DNA of 64,000 bases from NCBI GenBank assembly GCA_035541795.1, contig DATKMR010000014.1, positions 214,029 through 278,028 on the forward strand, given 5' to 3'. This document shows positions 10,587 through 39,463 of the stretch, piece after piece (position 1 is the stretch's first letter; each line of letters opens with the position of its first letter). The stretch comes from Bacteroidales bacterium (GTDB lineage: Bacteria; Bacteroidota; Bacteroidia; Bacteroidales; VadinHA17). The position numbers and the translations under genes are program-made. A model generated the notes under the pieces. It was not told the origin of the DNA. It was given only the letters and a program-made list of their open reading frames with translations, and made no database searches.

Positions 10587-11303
10587 TTACCCTCTCTTTT
10601 TGATCTCCTCGAGTAACCCGGGTTTTAATAGTATGATGTCTTTGTCGTGAAGTTCAATGATGCCGTCTTTTTCAAACGCTTTAAGCAGCTTTACCGCGCT
10701 CTCCATTGAAATTCCTGCAAAATCGGCAATGTCTTTTCTGCTTAGGTACTGGAATAAACTCTCATGTGATTTATTCAAACTATCTATATACAGCAAAGTC
10801 TCAGCAAGCCTTCCGTTCATCTGCCTGAAGAGCAATTTTCCCACCGTGTCAAGAAGGTTGGTGTTTTGCTCGCAGTATTTCCTGATTATTCCGTACGCGA
10901 ACATTGCATTCTGCTTGACAAGCGTCGCTATTGCATCTTTCTCAATAAGGTAGGCCTGGCAATCAGTCATGGCAACAGAGGAATAATTGAAAATATTAGT
11001 GTTAAATACGGCCGAGAGCCCAACAAACTCACCGGGAATGATAATCTTCAGATTAAAGTCCCTGTTCCCTTCCCCTTCAAGATACTGCCTTGCATATCCA
11101 TTGATAACAAATAAGATATAGGATGCAAAAGCTCCCTGCTTAGTAAGATTCTCACCTTTTCTGAAAAGGACCTGAGTTTTACTTCCCTTTACAAGATCCG
11201 CCTCTTCGTGTTGCAGATTCTGAAAGCACGGTGCTTTTATATCACAAAAAAAATCGTTATCTGCTTCCAGTATGGTCCTCATATATTCTGAATAATCCGA
11301 CAA
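10587..11303 (-). CDS. Crp/Fnr family transcriptional regulator
   Basis: 238 aa with an N-terminal cNMP-binding-like beta-barrel (FRKGENL...GE) and a C-terminal HTH (RKDIADFAGISMESAVKLLKAFEKDGII). Confidence 0.85.
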   Translation of the reverse strand: MSDYSEYMRTILEADNDFFCDIKAPCFQNLQHEEADLVKGSKTQVLFRKGENLTKQGAFASYILFVINGYARQYLEGEGNRDFNLKIIIPGEFVGLSAVFNTNIFNYSSVAMTDCQAYLIEKDAIATLVKQNAMFAYGIIRKYCEQNTNLLDTVGKLLFRQMNGRLAETLLYIDSLNKSHESLFQYLSRKDIADFAGISMESAVKLLKAFEKDGIIELHDKDIILLKPGLLEEIKKRG

Positions 11304-11428
11304 ATTTAATCTAAATCAATAAAAAAGTTGTTCTTTTTCAACCAGTCAATTATCATACATGAACAAGGAACCAGTAAATGCGCCGGATTTTGTATTTATT
11401 TTTGCTGCATAATTTTAAACTGAACAAA

Positions 11429-11785
11429 ATGTTGTACACAAATCTAAATCATCTGGAATCGGCATCTGATCATCAGAAGGCTGTTAACCAGAACGAAAAT
11501 GTAATGGTTATATGCGGAAGAATGGGTCCAATGTGCATACCTGTCTATGGCATTGCTGAAGAACTTGAAAAAGAATATAACCATGTCAAATTCTTCGATA
11601 TGGAATTTGATAATCCTGAATCTCATGTTATACGCAACCTTCCAGAAGTAAGAAACTTCATGGGTATTCCTTTTACAATTTACTATAAGAATGGCAAAGT
11701 AGTAAAAGCCACCTCAAGCATCCAGACGAAAGAGCAGGTAAGGACAATCCTCGATAAGGAGTTCTCTGCAACTGTGAATGTATAA
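11429..11785 (+). CDS. Thioredoxin-fold protein with an atypical active-site region
   Basis: Trx-like layout (VMVICGRMGPMCIPV....GIPFTIYYKNGK), but CGRMGPMC replaces WCGPC. ATG 11429 is preferred over the upstream start. The 3' end overlaps the next gene by 8 nt. Confidence 0.65.
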   Translation: MLYTNLNHLESASDHQKAVNQNENVMVICGRMGPMCIPVYGIAEELEKEYNHVKFFDMEFDNPESHVIRNLPEVRNFMGIPFTIYYKNGKVVKATSSIQTKEQVRTILDKEFSATVNV

Positions 11786-12749
11786 TGAAAAGGAGAAAAT
11801 GGATCATTTTGATGCTGTAATAATAGGCGCAGGACCGGCAGGTCTTACTGCAGGTATTTATCTCTCCAGGGCCAGGATGAAGACTCTCATTCTCGATGAA
11901 GGGATAACGGGAGGACAGATGGTGCTGACCCATGAGATTGCCAACTATCCAGGTGTTGAAAGCATCAGCGGGTTCCAGCTTGCCGGAATAATGAAAAAAC
12001 AGGCACTGGGATTCGGGTGTGAACTCAGGTCAAATATTTCAATAATTAGGATTGATCTTGAAAATAAAAGAAAGAAGATATCCCTCACAGACGGTTCTCA
12101 ATACTCGGCAGATTCGGTAATACTGGCTCCGGGCGGACGGCCAAGAACACTTGGTGTACCGGGTGAAAATGAGCTGAAAGGAAAGGGAATATCATATTGT
12201 GCCACCTGCGACGGCGATTTTTTTACCGGCAAGGAGATCATTGTGGTCGGCGGAGGAAATTCTGCACTTGAAGAAGCTGTATCGCTGACAAAATATGCGT
12301 CCAAAGTAACGGTTGTCCATCAGTTTGATCGCTTCCAGGCATTTGAGCACGCAATTGAAGAAGCCAGGAGCAATGCCAGGATAGATTTTATAATGGAATC
12401 AACTGTAGCAGGTTTTCATGGCTTTGAGAAGCTGGAAATGGCTGAAATCAAAAATCTCAGGACTGGAGAGATAACAAACAGGAGAATTGATGGCACATTT
12501 ATTTTCATCGGCTATATCCCCAACACGGAGTTCCTGGAAGGAATCATCAAACTGAACAGGAGAGGTGAAATTCCAGTCAGCGGGTCAGTGCAGACGGCCG
12601 TTGAAGGAGTTTATGCAGCTGGTGATTGTACAGCAAAACAGTACAGGCAGGTTACAACGGCTGTGGCGGACGGGACAATTGCAGCGCTTGCTGCATCAGA
12701 ATATGTCAACCAGATTAAAACATCGAGTAAAAAACTGATGGAGGCTTAA
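11778..12749 (+). CDS. Thioredoxin reductase-like flavoprotein (low-Mr TrxR family), probably not NADPH-dependent
   Basis: GAGPAG FAD motif, redox-active CATCDG and GGGNSALEEA. The HRRDxFRA NADPH 2'-phosphate motif reads HQFDRFQA here (encoded at 12318-12341). The true start may be MDHFDAV at 11799. Confidence 0.85.
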   Translation: MYNEKEKMDHFDAVIIGAGPAGLTAGIYLSRARMKTLILDEGITGGQMVLTHEIANYPGVESISGFQLAGIMKKQALGFGCELRSNISIIRIDLENKRKKISLTDGSQYSADSVILAPGGRPRTLGVPGENELKGKGISYCATCDGDFFTGKEIIVVGGGNSALEEAVSLTKYASKVTVVHQFDRFQAFEHAIEEARSNARIDFIMESTVAGFHGFEKLEMAEIKNLRTGEITNRRIDGTFIFIGYIPNTEFLEGIIKLNRRGEIPVSGSVQTAVEGVYAAGDCTAKQYRQVTTAVADGTIAALAASEYVNQIKTSSKKLMEA

Positions 12750-12750
12750 T

Positions 12751-13167
12751 ATGAAGATTACTTATATTATCGCAATTGTGGTGGTGTTTTTCGCCGGATA
12801 TTTCATTTACTCTTTCAGGAAAATGAAGAATATCCCCATGGTTGAGAACAGCGACAGGATATTGGAACTGACTGACAAGAATTTCCAGCTCCAGGTTAAG
12901 AGTAATATCACACTTGTCGATTTCTGGGCATCCTGGTGTGTACCATGCAAAATGATGGCACCGGTGCTGAATGAAGTTGCAGATGAAGTACCTGGTAATG
13001 TCAAGGTATGCAAGGTCAATGTTGAACAGTACCGGTCCCTGGCATCGAAATATTCGATTAGGGGAATCCCTACAATTGTTCTGTTCAGTGACGGGAAAGA
13101 AGTTGACAGGATAGTAGGTGTGAAAACCAAGGATTTTATCATTAACAGAATCAATAAAGTAAAATGA
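12751..13167 (+). CDS. Membrane-anchored thioredoxin
   Basis: An N-terminal TM helix (IIAIVVVFFAGYFIYSF) followed by a canonical Trx domain with WCVPC and GIPT. The stop overlaps the next start (ATGA at 13164-13167). Confidence 0.85.
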   Translation: MKITYIIAIVVVFFAGYFIYSFRKMKNIPMVENSDRILELTDKNFQLQVKSNITLVDFWASWCVPCKMMAPVLNEVADEVPGNVKVCKVNVEQYRSLASKYSIRGIPTIVLFSDGKEVDRIVGVKTKDFIINRINKVK

Positions 13168-14180
13168 CTGCAATTCTGATAGGTTTAGCATTTGGATCAA
13201 TACTCCGGTACGCGAAACTTAACCGTTTTGATACTATCAGCGGCCTGGCAATTCTCGGGGACCTCACGGTGGCAAAGGCATTAGCTGCAGCAGTCGGACT
13301 GGGAGCCATACTCGTGGCAGTTGAGACTGTTACCGGGCTTGGTTCATTCCATCTTAAACCCGTCATCCTTGGTGGATTGGTAATTGGAGGGATTGTATTT
13401 GGTACCGGGATGGCAATTCTGGGATATTGCCCGGGAACAATGGCTGTTTCTCTGGGTGAGGGATCAATAGATGCCCTGGCTGGCATAGCCGGAGGATTGG
13501 CAGGCGGGCTTGTTTACACGCTTTCATTCCCGGTTATTAAGAGCCTTGCAAACCCTGACCTGGGAAGCATTTCACTATTCAGCCTTCTGGGAAACAGCAG
13601 GCCTCTCTATTTGATAGCAACCCTGATCATCGGATCCTTGTTTATTGTGCTTGCTTTCAGATTGAAAGGCAGGGTGAACAATTCCGGGAAGAGATGGCTA
13701 TATGCTGGAATAGCCCTTGCAGCATTAAATGTGTTTGTTAATCTTTCATTTGTGGCTAACCATTTTATAGGTGCTTCAACTGCTTATCCAATGGTTGCCG
13801 ATTTTGTGACCGGTTTTACAGGTAATCCCTATTTTGAAAAGATAAAAGAACCCGGAACATGGGAACTGGAATTCCTTGGAGGAGCATTTCTTTCAGGACT
13901 TATTCTTTCAATTTCCAGTAAAGAATTCAGGATAACCACACTCCACAGTAACTGGATCAGGTTCAAAGGAAAGTCACCCCTGAACAGAATTTTATGGTCA
14001 TTTGCAGGTGGATTCCTGTTGCTCTTCGGCGCCAGGATGGCAGGTGGGTGCACAAGCGGACATATACTTTCAGGTGGGATGCAGCTTTCAGTCAGCAGCC
14101 TGGTATTCACAGTTTTTGTCTTTACTGGACTTGTTTTAACCGGGAAACTATTTTATAATCAGAAAGATGTAATTAAATAA
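13164..14180 (+). CDS. YeeE/YedE family sulfur-compound transporter (full-length, two-repeat form)
   Basis: 338 aa polytopic protein with the conserved Cys-containing motifs GYCPGT and GGCTSGH typical of YeeE/YedE. Confidence 0.85.
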   Translation: MTAILIGLAFGSILRYAKLNRFDTISGLAILGDLTVAKALAAAVGLGAILVAVETVTGLGSFHLKPVILGGLVIGGIVFGTGMAILGYCPGTMAVSLGEGSIDALAGIAGGLAGGLVYTLSFPVIKSLANPDLGSISLFSLLGNSRPLYLIATLIIGSLFIVLAFRLKGRVNNSGKRWLYAGIALAALNVFVNLSFVANHFIGASTAYPMVADFVTGFTGNPYFEKIKEPGTWELEFLGGAFLSGLILSISSKEFRITTLHSNWIRFKGKSPLNRILWSFAGGFLLLFGARMAGGCTSGHILSGGMQLSVSSLVFTVFVFTGLVLTGKLFYNQKDVIK

Positions 14181-14208
14181 TAATTCAACTTACTAAAAAA
14201 TCGAAATT

Positions 14209-14418
14209 ATGAAAAAGAACATGGGCAATCTCGACAGGATTCTGAGAGTTGTAGTTGCAATCGTAATTGCAGTTTTATTCTTCACAAAGGTTATAAGCGG
14301 AACATTGGGGATTATTCTCATGGTTATCGGAGGAGTATTCCTGCTAACAAGTATAATCAGCGTATGTCCCTTATATTACCCGTTTGGGATTAATACAAAA
14401 AAGAAAGAGGGAGCGTAG
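14209..14418 (+). CDS. DUF2892 (YgaP-like 2-TM) protein
   Basis: 69 aa. MGNLDRILRVVVA...two TM helices...CPLYYPFGINT matches the DUF2892 pattern as I remember it. Confidence 0.7.
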   Translation: MKKNMGNLDRILRVVVAIVIAVLFFTKVISGTLGIILMVIGGVFLLTSIISVCPLYYPFGINTKKKEGA

Positions 14419-14498
14419 CGGATTCTGTTGTAAATAAATTAAAAATGAGCCATCTGCTTGATATTGAATGAAAAAAGCGGATGTGATCTTGAATAACT

Positions 14499-14535
14499 GC
14501 TCCCGGTGATTTCAGCGATACCGGGAGCTTTTATT
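14499..14535 (+). terminator. Rho-independent terminator after the trx-yeeE-DUF2892 operon
   Basis: A 9-bp perfect stem GCTCCCGGT (14499-14507) / ACCGGGAGC (14520-14528) followed by TTTTATT. Confidence 0.65.
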
Positions 14536-14598
14536 GCTCTGCCAATTTAAAGACCGTGCATTTATCTTGTATTCATCTGTTGTGATACGCCTTGTAAT

Positions 14599-14623
14599 AT
14601 GAACATTTGTTCATTATATTTGT
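14599..14623 (+). promoter_or_regulatory. Operator palindrome ATGAACA-TT-TGTTCAT fused to a TATATTTG -7 box (promoter of the DUF134-nifX-arsR operon)
   Basis: ATGAACATTTGTTCATTATATTTGT lies 14 nt upstream of ATG 14637. A 24/25 identical copy lies on the minus strand at 17924-17948. TATATTTG fits the Bacteroides -7 consensus TAnnTTTG. Confidence 0.55.
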
Positions 14624-14636
14624 CAAAAATATTCGT

Positions 14637-15032
14637 ATGTCCCGGAATAAAAAGGACAGGTTGGTTCAGAAGGCGCCTAGTTTTTTCGGATTTAAGCCAC
14701 TTGGTCTCCAGGGTAAGCAATCAGAGGCGGTGATTCTTGGATTTGAGGAATACGAAGCCTTGAATCTGTGTGATTATGAGCTTCTAAAGCAGGCCGAAGC
14801 TGCCCTTTTGATGAATATCTCCAGACCCACCTTTACAAGAATTTATGAAAGTGCCAGGCGAAAAGTCGCAAGGGCCCTGGTTGAAGGAAAGCCCATTCGG
14901 TTTGCAAACGGGAACTCGTCAGTTGCTGAATGGTACATCTGTAACAGCTGTCGCATCAGTTTTACTCTGGCAGGGAAGGGAACACTTTGTTGTCCGGTTT
15001 GCAAATCCGGTGATATAATTCTTAACACATGA
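14637..15032 (+). CDS. DUF134 family putative DNA-binding protein with a C-terminal CxxC...CxxC zinc ribbon
   Basis: KAPSFFGFKPLG....VILGFEEYEALNLCDYELLKQAEAALLMNISRPTFTRIYESARRKVARALVEGK matches the DUF134 (sigma-70 region-4-like HTH) pattern. The tail reads CNSC...CCPVC. ATG 14637 is preferred over TTG 14607. Confidence 0.75.
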   Translation: MSRNKKDRLVQKAPSFFGFKPLGLQGKQSEAVILGFEEYEALNLCDYELLKQAEAALLMNISRPTFTRIYESARRKVARALVEGKPIRFANGNSSVAEWYICNSCRISFTLAGKGTLCCPVCKSGDIILNT

Positions 15033-15036
15033 TGTG

Positions 15037-15348
15037 ATGATTGTTGCAATTGCAGCCTCCGAAAACCACAAGAAATCCGTAATCGATTTGCATTTTGGAA
15101 GATGTGAATGGTATTGCCTTTTTAATTCAATCACAGGTGATCTAGAATTTATTGAGAATTCATTCAGATTTAAAAAGGATCAGGCTGGCCTTGATGCCGC
15201 TAAAATGCTTATAGCCAGGGGAGCTGGTATAATTGTGGCTGGACGTTTCGGGGCTAAGGTCATGGAAGTCCTTCGTGAAAACAACATTCAGATGGTTGTT
15301 CCGCAAACACGGCAGGATATTTCGAAGTTCTTAAATTCATTCAGATGA
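15037..15348 (+). CDS. NifB/NifX-type (dinitrogenase FeMo-cofactor-binding domain) protein
   Basis: IVAIAAS.....VIDLHFGRCEWYCLF...GAGIIVAGRFGAKV is typical of the small NifX/NifB C-terminal domain family. The start is GTG 15034 or ATG 15037. Confidence 0.75.
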   Translation: MIVAIAASENHKKSVIDLHFGRCEWYCLFNSITGDLEFIENSFRFKKDQAGLDAAKMLIARGAGIIVAGRFGAKVMEVLRENNIQMVVPQTRQDISKFLNSFR

Positions 15349-15686
15349 ATCAGTTAACAGAAAATTCTTATCCCAATTCTTTACCGGAAGTGAATGAATA
15401 CGAGAAATTCAGCGAAACACTCAAGGCACTATCTCATCCGGTAAGGTTGAAAATAATGCAGCTGCTGCTGAGCGACAAGATTTGTGTCAACGAAATTGTA
15501 AAAAGGCTGGACGTACCTCAATCAATTATCTCCCAGCATCTTTCAATTCTAAGAAACAGGGGGATATTAGTCAGGCAAAAAAAGGGTACCAGAACATGGT
15601 ACATGATCAGTGATGACCTGGCAATGGTAATTACAAATTTTCTGAACGGGAGGGATGAATCACGTTATAAACTGAAAAGTTACTGA
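15345..15686 (+). CDS. ArsR/SmtB family transcriptional regulator
   Basis: Winged HTH LKALSHPVRLKIMQLLLSDKICVNEIVKRLDVPQSIISQHLSILRNRGIL. It has a single Cys and no alpha-5 His/Asp metal-site pattern. The start overlaps the preceding stop (ATGA). Confidence 0.85.
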   Translation: MNQLTENSYPNSLPEVNEYEKFSETLKALSHPVRLKIMQLLLSDKICVNEIVKRLDVPQSIISQHLSILRNRGILVRQKKGTRTWYMISDDLAMVITNFLNGRDESRYKLKSY

Positions 15687-15690
15687 ATTC

Positions 15691-17466
15691 TCAGTGTGCC
15701 GGATCCGGTAACGTGGTCATCAGACCGGCTTTATCCCTTACCAGCTTAATTATTCCAGCGATTATTAGCTCCTCGTTTTCTGCGGAAATATCAAAAATAT
15801 ATACATTTCCGGTATTCCATTTCCTGGTAACACGGTCTAAAAGCTTCTTTCTGACAACCCACAGCTGAGTAACCGTCGAATATAAACATAATCTCTCTAT
15901 TGCATGATACCATCCTTTCCCGCTAAGCTCAAGCGGGCCAATCTCATCAATTACAATAAGCTGCTTATCCTTTGAGTTTTCAGGGTCAAGAATATGGGAG
16001 CCTGTATTTATGGTTTCGGGATTGAAAGAATATTTTCCTGTTTTTATACCATAACCTCTGCCTTCTGTTGAGCATAATTCGTATTGCTCAGCAGTATCGA
16101 TGTCATATAGCCTGAATCCAACCCTTCCCTTATCATTGTTTACTCCCGGTGACAAAAATCCTCCAACCCGGAAATTTTCTTCTTTCAGGCGCAAAACTGT
16201 CTTGTTGGCCAGTGTTGTCTTCCCCTGGTGGATCTCTCCGGTTATAATAATAATTTCCGGCCTTTTAAAGTGTTCCTTTTTAAATAAGTCAAGCAGGATA
16301 TCAGCCTTGCTGAGAAGACCCTTTAAAGAACTGCGAGAAATGCCGGAAGCGCTATTTTCTTTCCGTTCAGATAAACTGGACAGGAGAAAAGGGAGTGCGG
16401 AAAATGCAAGATCCAGCGACTGGTAAACCGATTCTAACCCATTGCGAAATAATATCGATTTGATTACCGGGTTCTTTAGTTCAATGCTGATGGCTGAGAA
16501 TCCAAGAACAAGGATTACCGCCCTGGCATTCATCTTTAAACCAACCAGTAACCCTGGCATACTGAAATATTCCCCGGTGGAAACTCCTTCCCATAAAAAT
16601 GCCGCGCAGAATGTAATTATTATAAAACTCAGCCAGAATTTAATCTTCAGCAGTCTTCTTATTGACCTGCTGTATTTTAAATAGCTGAAAAGAACATAGC
16701 AAATTCCTGCAAGTACAGCCGCGATTGTAAGATCTGAATTGATTAGGGTAAGTGTTCCTGTAATAAATAAGATATTTACTGTCAGCAGGATAAGTGAGTA
16801 CTTTTCGCCTGGAGCCGGGCCCTTCTTTATCCTGTTCCCTGACTGGAAGTTAAAGTCCAATTCCTGATCCCGACTGGAATCTTCTTTTGAGAATCCCCTT
16901 CCTGAGAGATAACCTGAAATAGCGCCGGCAATTCCTATAGCCGAATAGAACAGGACAATGATCAGCAAAACCATTAAAGGACTTACGCCGCGGATACTGA
17001 TCTGTTTTGAAACAAAATGATAGAGGTCAGTAACTATCTTCACCAGGTCGAAGCCGTACAGAATTAGCAGGTTGACTGTTTTTTGAATCAGTGTGCTCAG
17101 TACTGCAAAGATGCCGCCAATGATATAACCGAGAAGGTTCCTGCCAAAGATAAATATGAAAACCTGCATCAGGATTGCCTCTGCAAGTATGCCAATCATT
17201 GGCCCAAGGATTATTGCACTCGGCGATACAGCTTTCATCATGGCACATATAAGCCCTGACCTCCAGACAAGACCAGGTTCTTTCCAAACCTGAAGAAATG
17301 AAACGATCAGCCATACACTAATGAATGACAGAATCAAACCTGTAAAAGGGATTTTCAGGTTATGCAGGAAACTTCCCAGGACAATCTCCACCGAGGCCCA
17401 GATTGATCCTGTAACAGCCGATTTAAGCCATATTTCTTTTAAAGGTCTTGATGGTACAAGCTGCAT
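15691..17466 (-). CDS. Fusion protein: polytopic membrane domain (about 400 aa) plus C-terminal P-loop NTPase (THEP1/DUF2478-like)
   Basis: About 10 hydrophobic helices, then IIIITGEIHQGKTT (Walker A) and LIVIDEIGPLE (Walker B). The size and order resemble the NTPase_1/DUF2478 family as I remember it. Confidence 0.7.
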   Translation of the reverse strand: MQLVPSRPLKEIWLKSAVTGSIWASVEIVLGSFLHNLKIPFTGLILSFISVWLIVSFLQVWKEPGLVWRSGLICAMMKAVSPSAIILGPMIGILAEAILMQVFIFIFGRNLLGYIIGGIFAVLSTLIQKTVNLLILYGFDLVKIVTDLYHFVSKQISIRGVSPLMVLLIIVLFYSAIGIAGAISGYLSGRGFSKEDSSRDQELDFNFQSGNRIKKGPAPGEKYSLILLTVNILFITGTLTLINSDLTIAAVLAGICYVLFSYLKYSRSIRRLLKIKFWLSFIIITFCAAFLWEGVSTGEYFSMPGLLVGLKMNARAVILVLGFSAISIELKNPVIKSILFRNGLESVYQSLDLAFSALPFLLSSLSERKENSASGISRSSLKGLLSKADILLDLFKKEHFKRPEIIIITGEIHQGKTTLANKTVLRLKEENFRVGGFLSPGVNNDKGRVGFRLYDIDTAEQYELCSTEGRGYGIKTGKYSFNPETINTGSHILDPENSKDKQLIVIDEIGPLELSGKGWYHAIERLCLYSTVTQLWVVRKKLLDRVTRKWNTGNVYIFDISAENEELIIAGIIKLVRDKAGLMTTLPDPAH

Positions 17467-17489
17467 TCAGAATCAGAGTCAATTATTGT

Positions 17490-17873
17490 TTAACCGTGAT
17501 GACATGTATGTTCTCCGGGTGAATGGGAATGGTGATGATCGCATGTACTTCCGCTGTCTTCAACCGAGCCTTCGATGTATTTTCTGACTACTTCTTCCGC
17601 CCTGCCGGAACAGCCTTTTATGACTTCAATACCATTATTATTCAGAACATTGACTGCACCGACACCTATTCCGCCGGCAAGCATTACACTGACTCCAAAA
17701 GAAGCAAGCCGGGGTGCAATATCAGATTTACATCCGCATCCGGCGGGCGATTTAATCGTATTTACTTCCACAATCTCATTGGTTTCGGAGAGCGAATATA
17801 CTGCATAGGAATCACAATGACCGAAATGCGTATCCACCAGTTTGTCGTAGGTTACGGGAACTGCTATTTTCAT
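17490..17873 (-). CDS. NifB/NifX-type domain protein with a His/Cys-rich C-terminal tail
   Basis: MKIAVPV....HFGHCDSYAVY...GVSVMLAGGIGVGAV is the NifX-like core. The tail reads CDHHHSHSPGEHTCHHG. Confidence 0.75.
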   Translation of the reverse strand: MKIAVPVTYDKLVDTHFGHCDSYAVYSLSETNEIVEVNTIKSPAGCGCKSDIAPRLASFGVSVMLAGGIGVGAVNVLNNNGIEVIKGCSGRAEEVVRKYIEGSVEDSGSTCDHHHSHSPGEHTCHHG

Positions 17874-18267: not shown

Positions 18268-20505
18268 ATGACAAACAGGAGACAATTTATTAAGATTTCG
18301 GTGGCCGGAGCAGGATTTATGGCAACAGGTGCCGGTACAATGAAGGCCATGGAATTGATCTCTCAGCCGGGGAATACCGGCAGCCTGAATCTTGATCTAA
18401 AGAGAACCCCTACCTATTGTGAGGTTTGTTTCTGGAAATGCGCTGGCTGGGTATATAAAAAATCCAACGGAAAAATCTGGAAGATAATTGGGAATGACCA
18501 GGACCAGCATTGTAACGGCAGGCTGTGCCCGAGGGGAACCGGAGGTGTCGGAATGTATAATGATAACGAGAGATTAAGGACACCGCTGCTAAGGACAGCA
18601 GAAAGGGGAAAACAAATTTTCAGGGAAGCAACCTGGGATGAAGCTTTTGACTACATCGCGGGAAGGATGAAGGAAATATCAGTAAAATACGGGCCATCTT
18701 CAATGGCTCTGTTCACTCATGGTTCCGGGAGCTCATATTTTACAACACTTCTTAAAGCTTATGGCTCCGAGAATATTGCGGAACCATCTTATGCCCAGTG
18801 CAGGGGACCGAGGGATGATGCCTTTTTTGCAACCTTTGGCGAGGAAGCCTATTCTCCTGAAATAACTGACATAAGGAATACAAAGTGCCTTGTTCTCATT
18901 GGGTCACACATAGGAGAAAATATGCATAACGGTCAGATACAGGAAATGTCCGATGCCATTGATAACGGAGCTACGATAATTACTGTTGACCCAAGATTTT
19001 CAACTGCTGCAGGCAAATCGAAGTACTGGCTGCCGATTAAGCCATCGACAGACATCGCGCTGCTGCTGGCCTGGATGCACGAGATTATATATAATGAATA
19101 CTACGATAAAAAGTATGTGGATAAATATTGCACGGGGTTTGATCAGTTAAGGGAACATGTGAAAAATTTCACTGCTGAGTGGGCTTATGGAATAACAACA
19201 ATCAGTCCCGACAAAATCAAACGTACAGCCAAAGAAATGGCAAGCGCAGCACCTGCAGTCATAGTTCATCCGGGACGCCATGTAACCTGGTATGGCGATG
19301 ATACCCAGAGAATCAGGGCTATTGCAATACTAAATGCCTTACTGGGTTCGTGGGGTCGAAGGGGGGGATTCTACAGGCCATCAAAAGCATCGGTGCCAGG
19401 ATATAAATTGCCTGGATTTCCAAAACCATCCAGGACATGGCAGGATGCTTTTCCCGGCAAGTTTCCGATAGCCAGTTCGCCGGTTTCAAATGTGCTCATC
19501 GATGCCTCGATCCCGGAAAATAATCCGGGTTATCTGGTAAAGGGATGGATTGTAAACGGCACTAACCTTATCTCGACTATTCCTAACCAGGCAAATACAA
19601 TAAAAGCTATTCAGAATCTGGAACTACTGGTTGCAATTGACACAATGCCCATGGAGATAACTGGTTGGGCTGATGTTGTATTACCTGAATGCACATATCT
19701 TGAAAGGTATGACAGCCTGAGAATCAGCCCGCACAGGAAACCTTCCATCGCTTTAAGAATGCAATCGACTGAACCTTTGAATCAAACCAGGCCGGGTTAC
19801 TGGATTGCCAGGCAATTATCATTGAAGCTTGGGCTTGAAAGCTATTTTCCGTTTGAAAAACAGGAAGATTTGCTCGACTGGCAGTTAAAACAGGTTAAGT
19901 CATCGCTTGAGGAAATGCAAAGTCTTGGGGTTAAAAACTTTGAAAGGGAAGCCGATGACCTGTACTTTGCAGAGGATGAAAATGTGCAATTTCCTACTGA
20001 TTCAGGCAGGATAGAGCTGTTCTCAAAATCTCTTGAAGCCGCAGGTTTTGATGCAATGCCAAAATATACTGCTCATGAGGAGCCACAGGACGGCTATTAC
20101 AGGCTTATCTATGGCAGGGCACCAATGCATACTTTCAGCAGAACATCAAATAACCCCAATCTCACGGACCTTATGCATGAGAACAGCGTCTGGATTAACC
20201 CAAAAGTCGCGAAGGAATGGAGTCTTGTCACTGGACAGTATATATGGCTTAAGAATCAGGATGGAGTCACTACCGATTTTCCAATAAAAGTGAGGGTCAC
20301 TGAAAGAATTAGGTGGGATTCGGTTTATATGGTCCATGGATTCGGGCATAAGCAAAAACAAATGAAGAGATGCTTCGGAAAGGGGGCGAGCGATACACAA
20401 ATGATAACAAAAGTTCTTTACGATCCGCTGATGGGCGGAACCGGAATGAGATCGAATTTTGTAACGTTTGTAACAGAGAATGCAGGGAAGGAGGTATCAT
20501 TATGA
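18268..20505 (+). CDS. Tat-exported molybdopterin (bis-MGD) oxidoreductase catalytic subunit, PsrA/PhsA-like
   Basis: Tat leader MTNRRQFIKISVAGAGFMATGAG, an N-terminal FeS motif CEVCFWKC...C....C, and DMSO-reductase-family length and motifs. The stop overlaps the next start (ATGA 20502-20505). Confidence 0.9.
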   Translation: MTNRRQFIKISVAGAGFMATGAGTMKAMELISQPGNTGSLNLDLKRTPTYCEVCFWKCAGWVYKKSNGKIWKIIGNDQDQHCNGRLCPRGTGGVGMYNDNERLRTPLLRTAERGKQIFREATWDEAFDYIAGRMKEISVKYGPSSMALFTHGSGSSYFTTLLKAYGSENIAEPSYAQCRGPRDDAFFATFGEEAYSPEITDIRNTKCLVLIGSHIGENMHNGQIQEMSDAIDNGATIITVDPRFSTAAGKSKYWLPIKPSTDIALLLAWMHEIIYNEYYDKKYVDKYCTGFDQLREHVKNFTAEWAYGITTISPDKIKRTAKEMASAAPAVIVHPGRHVTWYGDDTQRIRAIAILNALLGSWGRRGGFYRPSKASVPGYKLPGFPKPSRTWQDAFPGKFPIASSPVSNVLIDASIPENNPGYLVKGWIVNGTNLISTIPNQANTIKAIQNLELLVAIDTMPMEITGWADVVLPECTYLERYDSLRISPHRKPSIALRMQSTEPLNQTRPGYWIARQLSLKLGLESYFPFEKQEDLLDWQLKQVKSSLEEMQSLGVKNFEREADDLYFAEDENVQFPTDSGRIELFSKSLEAAGFDAMPKYTAHEEPQDGYYRLIYGRAPMHTFSRTSNNPNLTDLMHENSVWINPKVAKEWSLVTGQYIWLKNQDGVTTDFPIKVRVTERIRWDSVYMVHGFGHKQKQMKRCFGKGASDTQMITKVLYDPLMGGTGMRSNFVTFVTENAGKEVSL

Positions 20506-21035
20506 GATATGCAATGGCAGTTGATACCAGGAAATGTGTGGGATGCAGCGATTGTGTTGTAGCCTGCCAGACTGAAAACAATGTACCATCAGGATTCAGC
20601 CGCGACTGGGTGGTGGAGAGGCTTAACGGGACGTATCCCCAGCTTGAAATTGAATTAAGATCGGAAAGATGCAACCATTGTAATAATGCTCCTTGTGTCC
20701 GTTGCTGCCCGACGGGAGCAAGTCATTTTGCTGAAGGTGGAATTATTCTCGTTAATCATTCAAAATGCATCGGCTGTGGAGCTTGTATTTCTGCCTGCCC
20801 TTATGATGCAAGGTACCCGCATCCCGATGGCTATGTCGATAAATGCACATTCTGTAACCATCGCCTTAAAAATGGGCTTAGCACCGCATGCGCTGATGTT
20901 TGTCCGACAAAATGCATCTACTTTGGCGATTTGGATGACCCTAACAGTTCAGTAACCATGATCCTGAAGCGGAGGAAGTATAAGACACTTATTCCTGAAG
21001 CAGGTACAGATCCGAGACTCTATTTTCTCATTTAA
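20502..21035 (+). CDS. 4Fe-4S ferredoxin-type electron-transfer subunit, PsrB/PhsB-like
   Basis: Four Cys clusters (CVGCSDCVVAC, CNHCNNAPCVRCC, CIGCGACISAC, CTFC....C..VC). I take the start at MRYAMAVD; the track's upstream extension from 20370 overlaps psrA. Confidence 0.9.
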   Translation: MRYAMAVDTRKCVGCSDCVVACQTENNVPSGFSRDWVVERLNGTYPQLEIELRSERCNHCNNAPCVRCCPTGASHFAEGGIILVNHSKCIGCGACISACPYDARYPHPDGYVDKCTFCNHRLKNGLSTACADVCPTKCIYFGDLDDPNSSVTMILKRRKYKTLIPEAGTDPRLYFLI

Positions 21036-21056
21036 AACTCCATAATACGGAATAAC

Positions 21057-21998
21057 ATGAACGAAGAATTAATAGTCAGTGGCAGAAATAACCTGATGGT
21101 GGACCCGCACCTTAACATCTGGCACTGGCCAATTCCTCTCTATCTCTTTCTCGGTGGAATGGCTGCTGGGATACTGGCAATAGCAGCCATATATTATATC
21201 AGGGGAAGAGAGGAGGATTACAAAGCTGCTGTGAGGATTACTCCGATGCTGGCTCCTTTTCTGCTTGTTCTCGGACTGCTTGCATTGTTTCTGGACCTCA
21301 GGCACAAAGCCTATTTCTGGCAATTGTATGTGAATATTAAGCTGCAGTCACCCATGTCGTGGGGTGCCTGGGTACTGATGGTAATCACCCCCGTCTCATT
21401 TATATGGGCAGCGTTGCACATAAGGGAACTGTTCCCAAGATGGGACTGGAAATACAGTGTGCTTTACTCTGTCGAAAAGTTCTTCATCAGGTATAAGAAA
21501 ATACTGGCCTGGGTTATGCTGATTTACGCATTAGTACTAGGTATCTATACAGGAATTTTGTTATCAGCATTCAATGCACGGCCGTTCTGGAACACTTCAA
21601 TTCTGGGGCCCTTATTCCTGGCATCCGGACTTTCGGCAGGTGCCGCTGCAACCCTGATAATATCAAAAAATACTGATGAAAGAAAACAGTTCGCGAGGAT
21701 AGACCTCGTACTGATAGGGATTGAATTATTCCTGATCATTCACATGTTTATGGGATTCCTGGCAAGTACACAGGTTCAGATTGATGCGGCTAACATGTTC
21801 CTCGGTGGCCCTTATACTACAGTGTTCTGGATATTTGTTGTTATCATGGGAATGCTAATCCCTGCATTGCTTGAAGTTCTGGAATTAAGGAAATACCACA
21901 TTCCTGCTATTTTGCCGGCAATACTTGTAATCTTCGGCAGTTTCATGCTGAGATTCATTATAGTATTTGCAGGTCAGGCAAGCCGGTGGCTATATTGA
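21057..21998 (+). CDS. NrfD/PsrC-type quinol-interacting membrane subunit
   Basis: 313 aa with about 8 TM helices, in the typical position after the A and B subunits. Confidence 0.85.
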   Translation: MNEELIVSGRNNLMVDPHLNIWHWPIPLYLFLGGMAAGILAIAAIYYIRGREEDYKAAVRITPMLAPFLLVLGLLALFLDLRHKAYFWQLYVNIKLQSPMSWGAWVLMVITPVSFIWAALHIRELFPRWDWKYSVLYSVEKFFIRYKKILAWVMLIYALVLGIYTGILLSAFNARPFWNTSILGPLFLASGLSAGAAATLIISKNTDERKQFARIDLVLIGIELFLIIHMFMGFLASTQVQIDAANMFLGGPYTTVFWIFVVIMGMLIPALLEVLELRKYHIPAILPAILVIFGSFMLRFIIVFAGQASRWLY

Positions 21999-22039
21999 AA
22001 ATCACTGATCGGGAAAATTATTTTATAATAAACCTAAAT

Positions 22040-22561
22040 ATGGAAGTTAAGAAAATAAAATACCTTAATCCCTATGTAGGAGGGGTATTATTAGGTCTGG
22101 TCTTGCTGGCTGCCAATTTTGTTTCGGGCAGAGGGCTTGGGGCAAGCGGTGCAATTAAAAGCGTGGTTGTAACCACCATGACGACGGTAGCTCCGCATGC
22201 GGGAGAAAACTCGGGATTTGTCAGGGAATTCCACCAGTCCCATCAGGGAAACCCGATGAAAACCTGGCTGGTATTCGAAATGCTTGGAGTTCTTGTTGGT
22301 GGATTTCTTTCAGGGACATTAGCAGGAAGACTTAAATTCAAAGTTGAGCATTCACCGAAAATAACCTCAGGAAGAAGGCTTGTCCTTGCTCTGGGAGGCG
22401 GTGTTCTATTTGGATTCGGATCCCAGCTGGGGAGAGGCTGTACCAGCGGATCAGCCCTCAGCGGAATGGCAGTGCTTTCACTTGGGGGATTTATTACAAT
22501 GATGGCAATATTCGGCACGGCCTTTGCCTTCGCATATTTCTTCAGAAAAAACTGGATTTAA
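22040..22561 (+). CDS. YeeE/YedE family protein (half-size, first of a split pair)
   Basis: GRGCTSGSALSG motif and 4 TM helices. ATG 22040 is preferred over the upstream start. Confidence 0.8.
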   Translation: MEVKKIKYLNPYVGGVLLGLVLLAANFVSGRGLGASGAIKSVVVTTMTTVAPHAGENSGFVREFHQSHQGNPMKTWLVFEMLGVLVGGFLSGTLAGRLKFKVEHSPKITSGRRLVLALGGGVLFGFGSQLGRGCTSGSALSGMAVLSLGGFITMMAIFGTAFAFAYFFRKNWI

Positions 22562-22574
22562 AAATAAATTGAAT

Positions 22575-23165
22575 ATGGGACCACTAGTTGCAAATGATAT
22601 AATATCAGAAAACACGAACCTGTTTCTGGCTTTTATTATAGGTATCGGGTTTGGTTTTGTTCTTGAGCAAAGCGGATTTTCTTCCAGTAAAAAGCTGGCC
22701 GGGGTTTTTTATGGATATGATACGGTAGTATTAAAAGTGTTCTTTACAGCTGCAATTACAGGAATGTTAGGTTTGCTTTTTTTCAGCCTCTTCGGTTGGA
22801 TTGACCTTAGCTCGGTTTACATCAACCCGACGTACCTGCCTTCTGCCATCCTTGGCGGCGTTATTATGGGGTTAGGCTTTATAATGGGTGGCTATTGCCC
22901 CGGCACAAGTTTTTGTGGAGCATCAATCGGTAAAATAGATGCCCTGGTTTTCATCGGGGGACTCTTTATCGGTGTATTTATCTTTGGTTTGGGATATAAA
23001 CTCTGGGAAGGCATCTATATGGCAAAGTTCATGGGCTCACCTAAAGTAAGTTCAGTTCTGGGTTTGTCCGACGGACTTTTTGCACTCCTGCTGATTATCG
23101 TTGCCCTGGTAATGTTCAGGGTCGCAGAGTGGGCTGAAAAAAAATACCCTGTTGAAGATTATTAG
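22575..23165 (+). CDS. YeeE/YedE family protein (half-size, second of a split pair)
   Basis: GGYCPGTSFCG motif and polytopic topology. ATG 22575 is preferred. Confidence 0.8.
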   Translation: MGPLVANDIISENTNLFLAFIIGIGFGFVLEQSGFSSSKKLAGVFYGYDTVVLKVFFTAAITGMLGLLFFSLFGWIDLSSVYINPTYLPSAILGGVIMGLGFIMGGYCPGTSFCGASIGKIDALVFIGGLFIGVFIFGLGYKLWEGIYMAKFMGSPKVSSVLGLSDGLFALLLIIVALVMFRVAEWAEKKYPVEDY

Positions 23166-23182
23166 AATTTAAAAATCATACT

Positions 23183-23806
23183 ATGAAACCACGTACATTA
23201 CTGGCATTATTTCTGATCCCTCTTGGACTTGTGATTGCTGCCGTGCCGCAGAATACAACCAGGCCTTATAAGCTGACTGCAGACCAGCTTCTTTCAGAAG
23301 TTAAAACCAGGACTCAGTATATTGCGCCTGAAACCGTTGCCGATATGCTTGTAAAGAAGGATCCGACTCTCAGGTTGGTTGATGTCAGGAGCCAGGATGA
23401 ATTTGAGAAATTCAGCCTTCCCGGGGCGGTTAATGTTCCTATACCTGACTTGTTAAATGACAAGTATACTGAGATTCTGAATCAGGATTCAAAGATGAAC
23501 GTCTTTTACTCCAACGGTACGATTACTGCAAATGAGGCATGGATGGTGACCCGTCAGTTGGGATATAAGAATAACTTTGTACTTGAAGGCGGACTCAACT
23601 ACTGGTTTGATGCAATTATGAATCCTCAGAAACCTGTATCTACAAGTGCGGATGAGGAGTTTGCAAAGTATGATTTCAGAAAGAGTGCCGGACAGGCCCT
23701 GGGCGGAGGAGGTGTGATTCAGGCTGAAAAGACACAGCCCGGTGCTGCTTCAAAGCCGACTGTAACGGCCGGGCCTAAGAAAAAGAAGGTAGCAGGCGGA
23801 TGTTGA
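23183..23806 (+). CDS. Membrane/periplasm-targeted rhodanese-homology-domain protein lacking the active-site Cys, with a Gly/Pro/Lys-rich tail ending in GGC
   Basis: N-terminal hydrophobic signal or anchor. The rhodanese pattern LVDVRSQDEFEKFSLPGAVNVP....VFYSNGTITANEAW...LEGGLNYW has Ser where the catalytic Cys sits. The only Cys in the protein is its last residue. Confidence 0.75.
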   Translation: MKPRTLLALFLIPLGLVIAAVPQNTTRPYKLTADQLLSEVKTRTQYIAPETVADMLVKKDPTLRLVDVRSQDEFEKFSLPGAVNVPIPDLLNDKYTEILNQDSKMNVFYSNGTITANEAWMVTRQLGYKNNFVLEGGLNYWFDAIMNPQKPVSTSADEEFAKYDFRKSAGQALGGGGVIQAEKTQPGAASKPTVTAGPKKKKVAGGC

Positions 23807-23819
23807 ATCAGAGATTCAT

Positions 23820-24410
23820 ATGTACGAGAACTTTTCAGGAATTATTCTGGCGGGCGGAGAAAACAAGAGATTTGACGGCATAATCAAATCTCTTTCTTAT
23901 ATTGATGGCAAACAGATTGTTAAAAGGATTATTCTGGTGTTGGAGCAATTGTTTCCTGAAATAATCATAGTAACAAATTTACCCGGGGAGTTCAGGGAAT
24001 TTTCCCGGTTTAAAATCGTAAGTGATAAGATCATTGGTAAGGGCCCTTTGGGTGGAATACACGCGGGTCTGGAGGCTGCTGCAAATGAGCTTTGTTTCGT
24101 TATTGCAGGTGACATGCCTTTCCCCGACAGGGATATCATTAAGGGTATGATAGATGAATTCTCTGATTCAGAACCTGAGTTGCTCATCCCGAAATTAGGA
24201 TCGGGAATTGAACCTTTGCACTCTATTTGGCAGCGTAAGATCAATCAGAAGCTAGAATCTTTCCTGCTTTCAGGAGACAGGAATGCAGTGCGGGATTTTA
24301 TAAAAACGGCGGATATTAAATATTATGAAATTCAGGAATCCGAATCAGCCAGAATTGCTTTTACCAATATCAATTACCTGAAAGATATTGTTTCACCGCA
24401 TAAATTTTAA
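23820..24410 (+). CDS. mobA: Molybdenum cofactor guanylyltransferase
   Basis: GIILAGGENKRF..., GPLGGIHAGL and AGDMPF motifs are typical of MobA. Confidence 0.8.
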   Translation: MYENFSGIILAGGENKRFDGIIKSLSYIDGKQIVKRIILVLEQLFPEIIIVTNLPGEFREFSRFKIVSDKIIGKGPLGGIHAGLEAAANELCFVIAGDMPFPDRDIIKGMIDEFSDSEPELLIPKLGSGIEPLHSIWQRKINQKLESFLLSGDRNAVRDFIKTADIKYYEIQESESARIAFTNINYLKDIVSPHKF

Positions 24411-38467: not shown

Positions 38468-39463
38468 ATGGAAATATTTAAACCAATGGACCTGAACAAG
38501 GATCCAAAAAAAGTGAATATTGAAAACACAGAAAGATTAAAATGTCTGATAATAGGCTCAGGCCCGGCAGGTTATACCGCAGCAATTTATGCTGCCAGGG
38601 CTAACCTGGGGCCGGTACTTTACACTGGGTTGCAGATGGGGGGACAGCTTACCACCACAACTGAGGTGGACAATTTTCCAGGATACCCCGATGGTGTTAC
38701 CGGTCCGGAGATGATGGAACAGCTGAAAAGACAGGCTGAACGATTCGGGGCCGAGATCAGGTTTGGCATTGCTACCGCTGTCGACTTTTCGGGGCATCCT
38801 CATAAGGTAACCATTGATGACACGATTGTTATTCTGGCAGATGCGGTTATAATTGCAACTGGGGCCACTGCAAAATACCTTGGCATCCCGGGTGAGACGA
38901 ATTATGCAGGAATGGGAGTTTCGGCATGTGCTACCTGCGACGGATTTTTTTACAGGGGGAAGGATGTTGCTGTTGTAGGCGGAGGTGATACTGCTGCTGA
39001 AGAAGCTACCTATCTTGCAGGATTATGCAGGAAAGTTTATCTGATTGTAAGAAGGGATGTTCTCAGGGCATCAAAGGCAATGCAGGAAAGAGTTAAAAAG
39101 ACCGAAAATATAGAGGTGATCTGGGAACACCAGGTAGTCGACCTGTATGGTGAAAATGGTGTCGAGGGGGCAATCCTTGTAAGCAGGAAAGGAACACCAC
39201 AGGAGAAAGAGGTTAAGATAAATATTGATGGCTTTTTCCTTGCCATAGGACATAAACCGAATTCTGAAGTTTTTAAAAAATACCTTGAAACCGATGAGGT
39301 AGGATATATCAAAACGACTCCCGGGTCATCGCGGACCAAAGTTCCCGGGGTATTTGCAGCAGGGGATGTCCAGGATCCAGTTTACAGGCAGGCAGTAACA
39401 GCTGCCGGATCGGGATGCATGGCAGCGATCGACGCAGAAAGATACCTCTCGGAGCTTCATTGA
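38468..39463 (+). CDS. trxB: Thioredoxin-disulfide reductase (canonical, NADPH-type)
   Basis: GSGPAG, CATCDG, GGGDTAAEEA and an intact VRRDVLRA NADPH motif. Confidence 0.9.
   Translation: MEIFKPMDLNKDPKKVNIENTERLKCLIIGSGPAGYTAAIYAARANLGPVLYTGLQMGGQLTTTTEVDNFPGYPDGVTGPEMMEQLKRQAERFGAEIRFGIATAVDFSGHPHKVTIDDTIVILADAVIIATGATAKYLGIPGETNYAGMGVSACATCDGFFYRGKDVAVVGGGDTAAEEATYLAGLCRKVYLIVRRDVLRASKAMQERVKKTENIEVIWEHQVVDLYGENGVEGAILVSRKGTPQEKEVKINIDGFFLAIGHKPNSEVFKKYLETDEVGYIKTTPGSSRTKVPGVFAAGDVQDPVYRQAVTAAGSGCMAAIDAERYLSELH

Follow-up and report, generated by a model that had tools for sequence, protein, structure and literature searches.

Which electron donor feeds a thioredoxin reductase paralogue that lacks the arginines for the 2'-phosphate of NADPH, and on what are its electrons spent? 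The question is raised by a stretch of 64,000 nucleotides from a Bacteroidales bacterium (assembly GCA_035541795.1, contig DATKMR010000014.1, positions 214,029 to 278,028; hereafter the window). In this stretch the gene of a thioredoxin reductase-like flavoprotein (TrxR-like) lies between the genes of two thioredoxin-fold proteins, an atypical one upstream (aTrx) and one with a transmembrane anchor downstream (tmTrx), and is followed by a gene for a YeeE-type membrane protein. An original prediction, made from the letters alone, had read these genes as a private relay in which a low-potential reductant feeds a membrane-tethered thiol chain at a sulfur or selenium transporter. All four operon genes, as well as the housekeeping trxB used there for comparison, exist exactly as described.

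Our best explanation is that the locus holds a second thioredoxin system, complete in itself and equipped with a regulator, of a kind that anaerobic Bacteroidales and Ignavibacteria typically carry. A divergent promoter with FNR-like boxes would be controlled by a Crp/Fnr-type regulator in which three or four cysteines are conserved. The flavin adenine dinucleotide (FAD) enzyme TrxR-like would most likely be supplied with electrons by NADH (or by NADH more readily than by NADPH) and not by ferredoxin. Its CATC dithiol would reduce the WCxPC site of tmTrx, held by its helix at the cytoplasmic face of the membrane (a topology read from charge bias), and probably also a Cys29-Cys36 disulfide of aTrx, in which MGPM replaces CGPC. 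The two thioredoxin-fold proteins would form the constant unit, the reductase being exchangeable in some relatives with an NADH-type persulfide reductase, and the most likely task would be the reduction of disulfides or persulfides (sulfane sulfur) at the membrane. In the window genome the module appears to be tied through translational coupling to a YeeE-like sulfur channel and a DUF2892 protein, beside a thiosulfate/polysulfide reductase island of the Phs/Psr type. Taken as a whole, we give this explanation slightly less than an even chance.

A three-gene module and its distribution

Among species-representative contigs (one genome per species) 188 stretches encode a relative of TrxR-like. 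Eighty loci were fetched and, together with two from a protein look-up, form the 82 genome loci counted below. Nearly all of the 80 belong to uncultured Bacteroidales and some to Ignavibacteria; Alkaliflexus imshenetskii DSM 15055, Proteiniphilum and Draconibacterium are among them. The neighbouring open reading frames (ORFs) of the 82 loci were clustered and representatives annotated. A further 80 loci came from scanning metagenomes with the N-terminus of aTrx as the seed; 44 of them have at least 1.5 kb downstream. At 90% identity, about 4,700 protein clusters correspond to aTrx.

The conserved unit consists of the regulator gene and, on the opposite strand, the genes for aTrx, TrxR-like and tmTrx. 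The order of the last three recurs in about 200 related loci, mostly next to a divergent gene of the Crp/Fnr type. aTrx is found immediately upstream of TrxR-like in 78 of the 82 genome loci (the exceptions include truncations at contig ends), tmTrx directly downstream of it in 58, and the regulator gene, divergent and adjacent, in 53. TrxR-like is present in 37 and tmTrx in 39 of the 44 metagenome loci. The dedicated thioredoxin relay that had been proposed is thereby supported: its three genes form an obligate module with a regulator to itself, and anaerobic Bacteroidales and Ignavibacteria carry a conserved second thioredoxin system of their own. The most conserved member is aTrx, with a median identity to the window protein of 82%, against 68% for TrxR-like, 64% for the regulator and 55% for tmTrx. 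As Alkaliflexus imshenetskii DSM 15055 is a cultured carrier of the module, the predictions made here are testable.

In the window the operon runs aTrx, TrxR-like, tmTrx, YeeE, DUF2892, with junctions, in that order, of an 8-nucleotide overlap, a 1-nucleotide gap, a 4-nucleotide overlap and 28 nucleotides; the DUF2892 gene is probably the last of the transcription unit. This gene occurs within the flanks of 11 of the 82 genome loci and in 10 of the 44 metagenome loci. The GC content and skew around 10-25 kb are not distinctive, and a horizontally acquired island was rejected on these grounds.

The arginine-less reductase and its electron donor

TrxR-like is 36% identical to the housekeeping TrxB of the window, and its identities to this enzyme and to E. 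coli TrxB span 34-36%; the authentic E. coli trxB (NC_000913), ahpF and lpd sequences were fetched as comparators. It has both FAD motifs, GAGPAG (residues 17-22) and GVYAAGD, which the family conserves, and the redox-active CATC is retained along with the thioredoxin-docking GKG and FF and with ISY. Both sides of the contrast drawn originally, a housekeeping enzyme with VRRDVLRA and a paralogue with CATC and HQFDRFQA, were confirmed. In the alignment with E. coli TrxB, Q182, F183 and Q187 of TrxR-like fall on R176, R177 and R181. The HMMER alignments with five solved NADPH-dependent reductases that carry HRRxxxR (VTIVHRRDTLRAQ, VTLIHRRDEFRAS, VTVVHRRDQLRAQ and others) are free of gaps across the segment, as in the pairing of VTVVHRRDQLRAQ with VTVVHQFDRFQAF. 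It follows that the arginines were replaced and not displaced. Both comparisons thus confirm that all three 2'-phosphate arginines are lost, and a mere shift of these residues, the obvious objection, is ruled out: the sole basic residue nearby is position 185, an Arg in the window and a His in 70 of 83 relatives.

The same substitution runs through the family. A homology search over 5.8 billion proteins returned thousands of homologues, and among the best 120 (69-99% identity; Bacteroidales or Bacteroidota wherever named) the arginine-less HQF-x-x-FQA is invariably combined with GGGNSA and CATC (120/120). In a family alignment of 83 sequences, window copy included, the three Arg positions are occupied by Q, F and Q without exception, the family reading HQFDHFQA. 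This substituted site is 96.7% conserved and the CATC region (GKGISYCATCDGDFF) 96.5%. The most conserved 20-residue segment of the protein comprises residues 152-171 (KEIIVVGGGNSALEEAVSLT), with a column identity of 97.5% where the mean is 78%, and GGGNSALEEA reaches 99.6%. A site so strictly conserved is in use, and to retain the pyrophosphate clamp while giving up the phosphate clamp is what one would expect of an enzyme that uses NADH. TrxR-like may be a natural specificity switch, with the dinucleotide fold kept and only the phosphate clamp lost. A text search of the literature for the active-site motif of aTrx and for the arginine-less motif of TrxR-like returned no paper.

Overall similarity places the enzyme with the NADPH reductases. 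These were the best matches in a search of the PDB (7AAW, 1e-73; 2Q7V, 2e-73), the cyanobacterial DTR/FFTR 5J60 being intermediate at about 2e-53 (1.7e-53), and the clostridial FFTR 6GNA (a flavin thioredoxin reductase that depends on ferredoxin) and DvTRi 5NII weaker at 3e-31 and 6e-28. The isolated NADPH-domain segment retrieved NTRs and TrxR-type FNRs from the PDB, and no FFTR, DTR or TRi. With the low-Mr TrxB enzymes that use NADPH (7AAW of B. cereus, 2Q7V of D. radiodurans, 1TDE of E. coli) TrxR-like shares the fold, both Rossmann motifs, CATC, GKG and FF, and the FAD motifs; it differs in having HQFxxFQ for HRRxxxR in every member, and in a gene embedded between two dedicated thioredoxin-fold genes. 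Held against the NADPH thioredoxin reductase equivalog TIGR01292, it shows the FAD, CxxC/docking and GGGxxAxE features but not HRRxxxR, and its score of 337.6 bits lies just below the cut-off of 343.45. We infer that it descends from an NADPH-dependent reductase.

The thioredoxin systems of anaerobes have diversified in their donor, which may be NADPH, NADH, ferredoxin or F420, and the reductase classifications that we found in the literature are limited to Clostridia, Deltaproteobacteria, cyanobacteria and archaea. By published definitions the clostridial FFTR has lost both GxGxxA and HRRxxxR; in DvTRi GGGxxAxE is degenerate and HRRD has become TQ/NGK; the cyanobacterial FFTR has a C-terminal Trp on the flavin and differs in its NADPH-cavity motifs. 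TrxR-like resembles these enzymes (6GNA, 5J60/6XTF, 5NII) in its derivation from TrxB, the absence of the arginine motif, the occurrence in anaerobes and the association, frequent among them, with trxA-trxB operons. It differs, however, in keeping the loop that the clostridial FFTR and DvTRi have lost, and the C-terminus of the family (...YLHELKTKQKQLILA) has no conserved Trp of the cyanobacterial DTR type. These differences, together with the weaker similarity (E-values) and with HQFD in place of TQGK, led us to reject membership of the FFTR, DTR and TRi classes.

The closest concept is TR3/Trx3 of D. vulgaris, a private reductase-thioredoxin pair with an atypical thioredoxin. TR3 and the T. 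acidophilum reductase (TaTR) resemble TrxR-like in lacking a 2'-phosphate motif, and the pyrophosphate motif is retained both in the NADPH-type TR1 and in the NADH-preferring TR3. By the published signatures, however, TR3 shows CxQ at the site of GR/KG, a Pro instead of the docking Phe and a His in VSY, where TrxR-like has GKG, FF and ISY. Membership of TR3, which has been reported only in Deltaproteobacteria and Clostridia, was rejected accordingly.

The assumption that reductases without the arginine motif use ferredoxin or deazaflavin leaves out TaTR: this enzyme, too, has no HRRxxxR and was at first taken to work independently of nucleotides, until its dependence on NADH was demonstrated. 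The low-potential donor derived from it found no support, either in the motifs (FFTR and DvTRi also lose GxGxxA, while GGGNSALEEA is kept here) or in similarity. Because TrxR-like is far closer to the NADPH reductases and has kept the pyrophosphate loop, NADH is likelier than ferredoxin; ranked in this way, NADH (or NADH over NADPH) would be the most likely donor, ferredoxin or flavodoxin a possible one and plain NADPH an unlikely one. NADH is also favoured by VVHQFD being in register with VVEMFD in the NADH-binding fold of E. coli Lpd. Some points tell against the ranking, which reads the donor from motifs only. The residue at the classical acidic position for NADH is a His, as in NADPH enzymes, where both Lpd and AhpF (LLEFAPEMKA) have Glu. 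Moreover, position 185 is His, Lys or Arg in most members, so that a residual use of NADPH is possible.

The same residues bear on two alternatives. TrxR-like could be independent of pyridine nucleotides and be fed by ferredoxin or flavodoxin like FFTR, DTR and DvTRi, which is the model of the original prediction. All three arginines are indeed gone, the NADH ribose position has no Glu, ferredoxin is abundant in the anaerobic hosts, and TaTR shows that a donor predicted from sequence has been wrong before. However, a motif that FFTR and TRi lose is invariant here and lies in the most conserved stretch, the enzyme is much nearer to NADPH reductases than to either class, the DTR-type tail is missing, no ferredoxin or flavodoxin gene is conserved among the annotated neighbours of the module, and the enzyme that takes the place of TrxR-like in some loci (see below) is an NADH-type flavoprotein; we regard this model as unlikely. 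It seems less probable still that TrxR-like is essentially NADPH-dependent, with a cluster of His181, His/Arg185 and His191 standing in for the arginines, and differs from TrxB only in its partners. The wholly intact dinucleotide fold would fit, as would His181, kept as in TrxB, and the H, R or K at position 185 of most members (Arg in the window), but in a comparison of DvTRi with EcTrxB a single remaining basic residue was described as insufficient, the 2'-phosphate needing seven salt bridges from three arginines, and the strict selection for Q, F and Q (83/83) argues for a changed specificity rather than for drift.

The two thioredoxin-fold partners

An in-frame ATG lies upstream of aTrx at 11378; since 78 orthologues begin with MLYTNL, the start was placed at 11429. 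The protein has no precomputed Pfam domain and stays below the cut-offs of the hidden Markov models (HMMs) for thioredoxins (PF00085, 16.8 against 23.5; NCBIfam TIGR01068, 21.6 against 96.8). An AlphaFold2 model based on 22 family members has a thioredoxin fold (pLDDT 87.4), for which Foldseek gave a probability of 1.0 and TM values of 0.73-0.83 to the best-matching solved thioredoxins, at about 20% identity. On the numbering of E. coli thioredoxin, which we take to coincide with that of aTrx, Met32 and Met35 occupy both catalytic Cys positions; G33-P34 are kept, and cysteines are found at 29 and 36. Both the D-x-x-x-N-P motif and the cis-Pro (GIP), ordinary features of thioredoxins, are retained. 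The atypical thioredoxin that had been proposed from CGRMGPMC is thus borne out by the MGPM at the CGPC positions, the sub-threshold HMM scores and the fold.

The motif reads CGRMGPMC or CCGRMGPMC in 75 of 78 loci. A profile search of 1.84 billion representatives retrieved only 188 clusters of the aTrx family at E <=1e-3, which indicates a compact family distinct from ordinary thioredoxins. Invariant throughout the wider family are MLYTNLxH(x)E, Cys29-Gly30, Met32, Asp57, Glu59 and two prolines; position 36 frequently has Ser instead of Cys, and residues 33-35 are variable. Where TrxR-like directly follows aTrx, Cys29 and Cys36 occur in 125 of 126 cases and Ser36 in none, whereas Ser36 is found in 8 of 33 cases where it does not (Fisher p = 1.6e-6, uncorrected for phylogeny). 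Such tracking would be expected if a TrxR-type dithiol exchanger reduces the Cys29-Cys36 disulfide, and the CATC of TrxR-like probably does so.

Two short metagenome contigs present the aTrx family in other company. On one (L086) the gene directly precedes a CoADR/Nox-like gene; on the other (L087) it lies directly after a canonical trxB of the HRRD type and before a CoADR-like gene. It appears from these contexts that the family pairs with several flavoprotein disulfide reductases. Domain fusions were considered as hints to function and discarded, the long forms looking like chimeras or miscalled starts (e.g. aTrx with a Crp fragment).

The downstream partner scores above both thioredoxin cut-offs (PF00085, 107.2 against 23.5; TIGR01068, 116.6 against 96.8) and has, besides WCVPC, the cis-Pro loop RGIPT. 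The HMM score and the hydrophobic segment at residues 3-22 agree with the membrane-anchored thioredoxin originally described. In all of 59 orthologues the hydrophobic helix begins 0-6 residues from the N-terminus, and in all of them Lys and Arg are more numerous on its C-terminal than on its N-terminal flank (on average 3.4 after the helix and 0.15 before it). From this bias the positive-inside rule predicts that the thioredoxin domain lies in the cytoplasm, at about 40 residues from the membrane, which would put it within reach of a cytoplasmic flavoenzyme; a topology prediction of this kind had been suggested along with the original prediction. A periplasmic location was rejected on account of this charge bias and of the absence of DsbD and CcdA from the annotated recurrent neighbour families.

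Following the helix, tmTrx has a juxtamembrane stretch R-x-(R/K)-M-K-N-I-P (in full (R/K)-x-(R/K)-M-K-N-(I/T)-P-x-V; within window 12757-12840) that is far better conserved than the rest of the N-terminal region, which suggests a docking or lipid-facing function. A soluble second thioredoxin of 99 residues with WC[SGN]PC often follows tmTrx (e.g. in the metagenome loci L109, L115, L130, L132 and L153), the order TrxR-like, tmTrx, Trx being found in 11 of the 44 metagenome loci; the window lacks it.

The sulfur link, the regulator and the surrounding genes

The strongest evidence for a role in sulfur metabolism is an exchange of the reductase. In 5 of the 44 metagenome loci (L096, L103, L105, L113 and L151; also in L089 and L137) the regulator, aTrx and tmTrx are followed by a CoADR-type flavoprotein of 760-780 residues with three rhodanese domains; some of these loci have Ser36 in aTrx, and the anchor and juxtamembrane motif of tmTrx are unchanged. 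The best solved relatives of this flavoprotein are Npsr, a persulfide reductase that depends on NADH (3NTD, 1e-134), the CoADR-RHD of B. anthracis and the CoA-persulfide reductase 8A56 (1e-121), and it carries a Glu-type NADH signature, VNVVEMMP. Npsr and the CoADR-rhodanese enzymes belong to another flavoprotein class, with a single Cys and a rhodanese, and none is encoded in the window; a shared task would follow from the gene replacement. Since an enzyme resembling persulfide reductases fills the slot, aTrx and tmTrx appear to be the constant part and the reductase the exchangeable one. The swap further suggests that the module handles sulfane sulfur, and it also fits an NADH-type input. 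Around the 82 genome loci, genes of sulfur-related type recur: DUF302 (25 loci), DsrE-like (11), DUF2892 (11), SQR/NDH-2-like (9) and DUF1847 (6). The sulfur connection of the original prediction is supported by the recurrence of YeeE, DUF2892, DsrE-like, DUF302 and SQR/NDH-2-like genes and by the Npsr-like swap. If it is true, it offers a testable route for the reduction of persulfides at the membrane in sulfide-exposed anaerobes.

The YeeE protein of the window scores 97 bits with Sulf_transp (cut-off 27) and 69.7 with the TsuA equivalog (cut-off 400). Compared with the S. thermophila YeeE (6LEO), the equivalents of Cys91 and Cys293, both indispensable there, are kept (GYCPGT, GGCTSGH) and that of Cys22 is absent. 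The ATGA overlap with tmTrx, from which a coupling of the two had been concluded, is real, but it was found only in the window's own organism; since no more than 3 of the 82 genome loci have YeeE inside 7 kb (and 9 of the 44 metagenome loci have it at any place in the locus), the coupling is a feature of the lineage and not of the module. The arrangement resembles TsuA(YeeE)-TsuB(YeeD), where a YeeE-family channel gene likewise adjoins, and is probably co-translated with, the gene of a small cytoplasmic thiol protein. It differs in that the partner is a membrane-anchored thioredoxin instead of a TusA-like protein and in that YeeE has two of the three conserved cysteines and stays under the TsuA cut-off. 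TsuA cannot do without TsuB, and soxT1A has a gene for a DsbA-like thioredoxin as its neighbour. No TusA-like domain was detected among the genes scanned at 10587-17466. In this lineage, though not family-wide, tmTrx in a fixed ratio with YeeE could replace the TusA-like acceptor, reducing an S-S cargo or a cysteine adduct at the mouth of the channel. If the sulfur link is true, this would hint at how YeeE-type channels pass on their cargo without a TusA-like partner. Selenium, the other cargo once considered, found no support: the score with YedE/FdhT is 53 against a cut-off of 350, and Rfam and tRNA scans of the window gave no RNA family match and no tRNA for selenocysteine.

It is possible, and we propose it tentatively, that a new class of redox protein is involved. 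The reactive centre of aTrx would have moved from the CGPC positions to Cys29, with or without Cys36, beside the invariant MLYTNLxHxE, and aTrx and tmTrx would together form a hitherto unrecognised module of anaerobic Bacteroidota that reduces persulfide/polysulfide (sulfane sulfur) on the cytoplasmic side, powered interchangeably by an NADH-adapted TrxR or by an Npsr-type enzyme and docked in some lineages on YeeE channels in place of a TusA-like partner. In the literature no description was found of the combination of a Met-for-Cys thioredoxin partner, a tethered thioredoxin, an FNR-like regulator and a slot for two reductases. aTrx itself represents a new thioredoxin-fold family, without a Pfam model and with an unprecedented layout of the active site. 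The interest of the system is more in aTrx and the architecture of the exchangeable reductase than in the loss of the arginines.

Several observations speak against parts of this explanation. In the aTrx model pLDDT dips to 76 over residues 31-40, around the putative Cys29-Cys36 pair, and the association of Cys36 with TrxR-like is phylogenetically non-independent. The rarity of YeeE near the module has been mentioned, and the commonest accessory genes, for an OsmC-like protein (31 of the 82 loci), a thioredoxin-glutaredoxin (Trx-Grx) fusion (26) and a Cpn10-like protein (23), suggest peroxide or disulfide stress no less than sulfur. They support a different function, a stress-inducible thioredoxin system that deals with peroxide and disulfide damage on exposure to oxygen through OsmC-type peroxidase, glutaredoxin-like and chaperone partners, the sulfur genes nearby, the YeeE of the window included, being incidental. 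An ECF sigma factor gene in 14 of the 82 loci and the FNR-like regulator with its conserved cysteines and boxes fit as well. Such a system does not account for the replacement of the reductase by an enzyme with three rhodanese domains that resembles Npsr and CoA-persulfide reductases, for the recurrence of DUF302, DsrE-like, DUF2892, SQR/NDH-2-like and YeeE genes, or for the translational coupling to YeeE inside a Phs/Psr-rhodanese island, and we consider it doubtful, although stress and sulfur functions are mutually compatible. A further alternative makes aTrx a carrier of a cofactor or metal instead of a substrate, with a soft metal or an Fe-S cluster bound by C29, M32, M35 and C36 together with His8, so that aTrx supplies the reductase with electrons or else with a metal or metalloid. 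The cysteine-flanked M-G-P-M exactly at C-G-P-C, the invariance of His8, Glu10, Asp57 and Glu59 across the wider family and the extreme conservation of aTrx are in its favour. With Cys36 often Ser and residues 33-35 variable in that same family, with relatives adjoining ordinary NAD(P)H flavoproteins, for which a protein donor is unnecessary, and with D-x-x-x-N-P and the cis-Pro being what any thioredoxin has, we hold it to be very improbable.

The features of the locus are collected in the table. The Crp family starts at Met8 of the window ORF (family consensus MKTILE), so that the gene likely begins with the ATG at 11282 and the start assigned mechanically is too long. Among the conserved cysteines of the regulator are Cys20 (96%) and Cys26 (100%), in a C-x5-C arrangement, a third near position 115 (69%) and a fourth near 144 (94%). 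Of 49 orthologous intergenic regions, 24 have a box with at most one mismatch from the FNR-like consensus, whereas 2.2% of shuffles do; its distance from the aTrx ATG is fixed, with a median of 126 nucleotides upstream. The weaker box, 22 bp downstream of the first, may also function as a regulatory element, and a redox- or oxygen-responsive switch is plausible. TAnnTTTG is the -7 consensus of Bacteroidetes; the corresponding element, TAATTTTG, occurs in 25 of the 49 regions, mostly 31-38 nucleotides before the start codon where the distance is listed. A generic scan for sigma-70 promoters and terminators, which does not cover Bacteroidetes promoters, gave counts not above the shuffled expectation.

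Features of the thioredoxin module and of the comparator gene (window coordinates)
Feature	Position	Strand	Remarks
Crp/Fnr-family regulator	10587..11303	-	divergent from the operon; cNMP_binding and HTH_Crp_2 domains
FNR/CRP-like box	11306..11319	.	TTAATCTAAATCAA; one mismatch from TTGAT-N4-ATCAA
Second, weaker box	11328..11341	.	TTGTTCTTTTTCAA; GTTG-N8-TTCAA(C/T) in aligned upstream regions
-7 promoter element	11410..11417	+	putative; TAnnTTTG-like, TAATTTTA
aTrx	11429..11785	+	118 aa, thioredoxin fold, unnamed family; C29-G-R-M-G-P-M-C36 at 11513-11536
TrxR-like flavoprotein	11778..12749	+	323 aa; overlaps the end of aTrx
CATC of TrxR-like	12198-12209	+	residues 141-144
GGGNSALEEA of TrxR-like	12249-12278	+	residues 158-167
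HQFDRFQA of TrxR-like	12318-12341	+	residues 181-188
tmTrx	12751..13167	+	membrane-anchored thioredoxin; hydrophobic segment at 12757-12816; WCVPC, residues 62-66, at 12934-12948
YeeE/YedE-family membrane protein	13164..14180	+	ATGA overlap with the tmTrx stop at 13164-13167
DUF2892 protein	14209..14418	+	small membrane protein, YgaP-like transmembrane; PF11127, 81.5 bits
Housekeeping trxB	38468..39463	+	CATC, GGGDTAAEEA, VRRDVLRA (39047-39070)

The intergenic region (window 11283-11428) also contains a strongly conserved element, AAATCAATAAAAAAGTTG-N8-TTCAA(C/T), found in 23 of the 49 loci, where its spacing to the aTrx start is nearly constant; overall, the conserved intergenic element comprises two pairs of FNR-like half-sites spaced by about two helical turns.

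The Trx-Grx fusion and the Cpn10/GroES-like protein form a recurrent pair after tmTrx (e.g. in loci L014, L018, L023, L026 and L067). The fusion has 192 residues, with a Cys-poor thioredoxin-like domain and a CSWC glutaredoxin domain, and its partner has 95.

Downstream of the operon the window contains a cluster at 14607-17873, with genes for DUF134 (14607-15032), a NifX/NifB-like Nitro_FeMo-Co protein (15034-15348) and an ArsR/SmtB regulator (15345-15686) and, on the minus strand, for a membrane protein of 591 residues that carries a THEP1-type NTPase at its C-terminus (15691-17466) and another NifX-like protein, whose tail is rich in Cys and His (17490-17873). Among the 44 metagenome loci, 8 also have DUF134, 3-5 have NifX-like genes and 3 have the THEP1-type NTPase. 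The cluster is followed by a respiratory reductase operon of the Phs/Psr type (18268-21998), which encodes a PhsA-like molybdopterin subunit (478 bits, cut-off 694), a 4Fe-4S subunit and an NrfD subunit. Finally, two half-size YeeE-family genes (21986-22561 and 22524-23165; together 21986-23165), which resemble the PmpA/PmpB halves of the literature, precede genes for a rhodanese (23183-23806), MobA (23820-24410) and a second Crp-family regulator (24484-25161).

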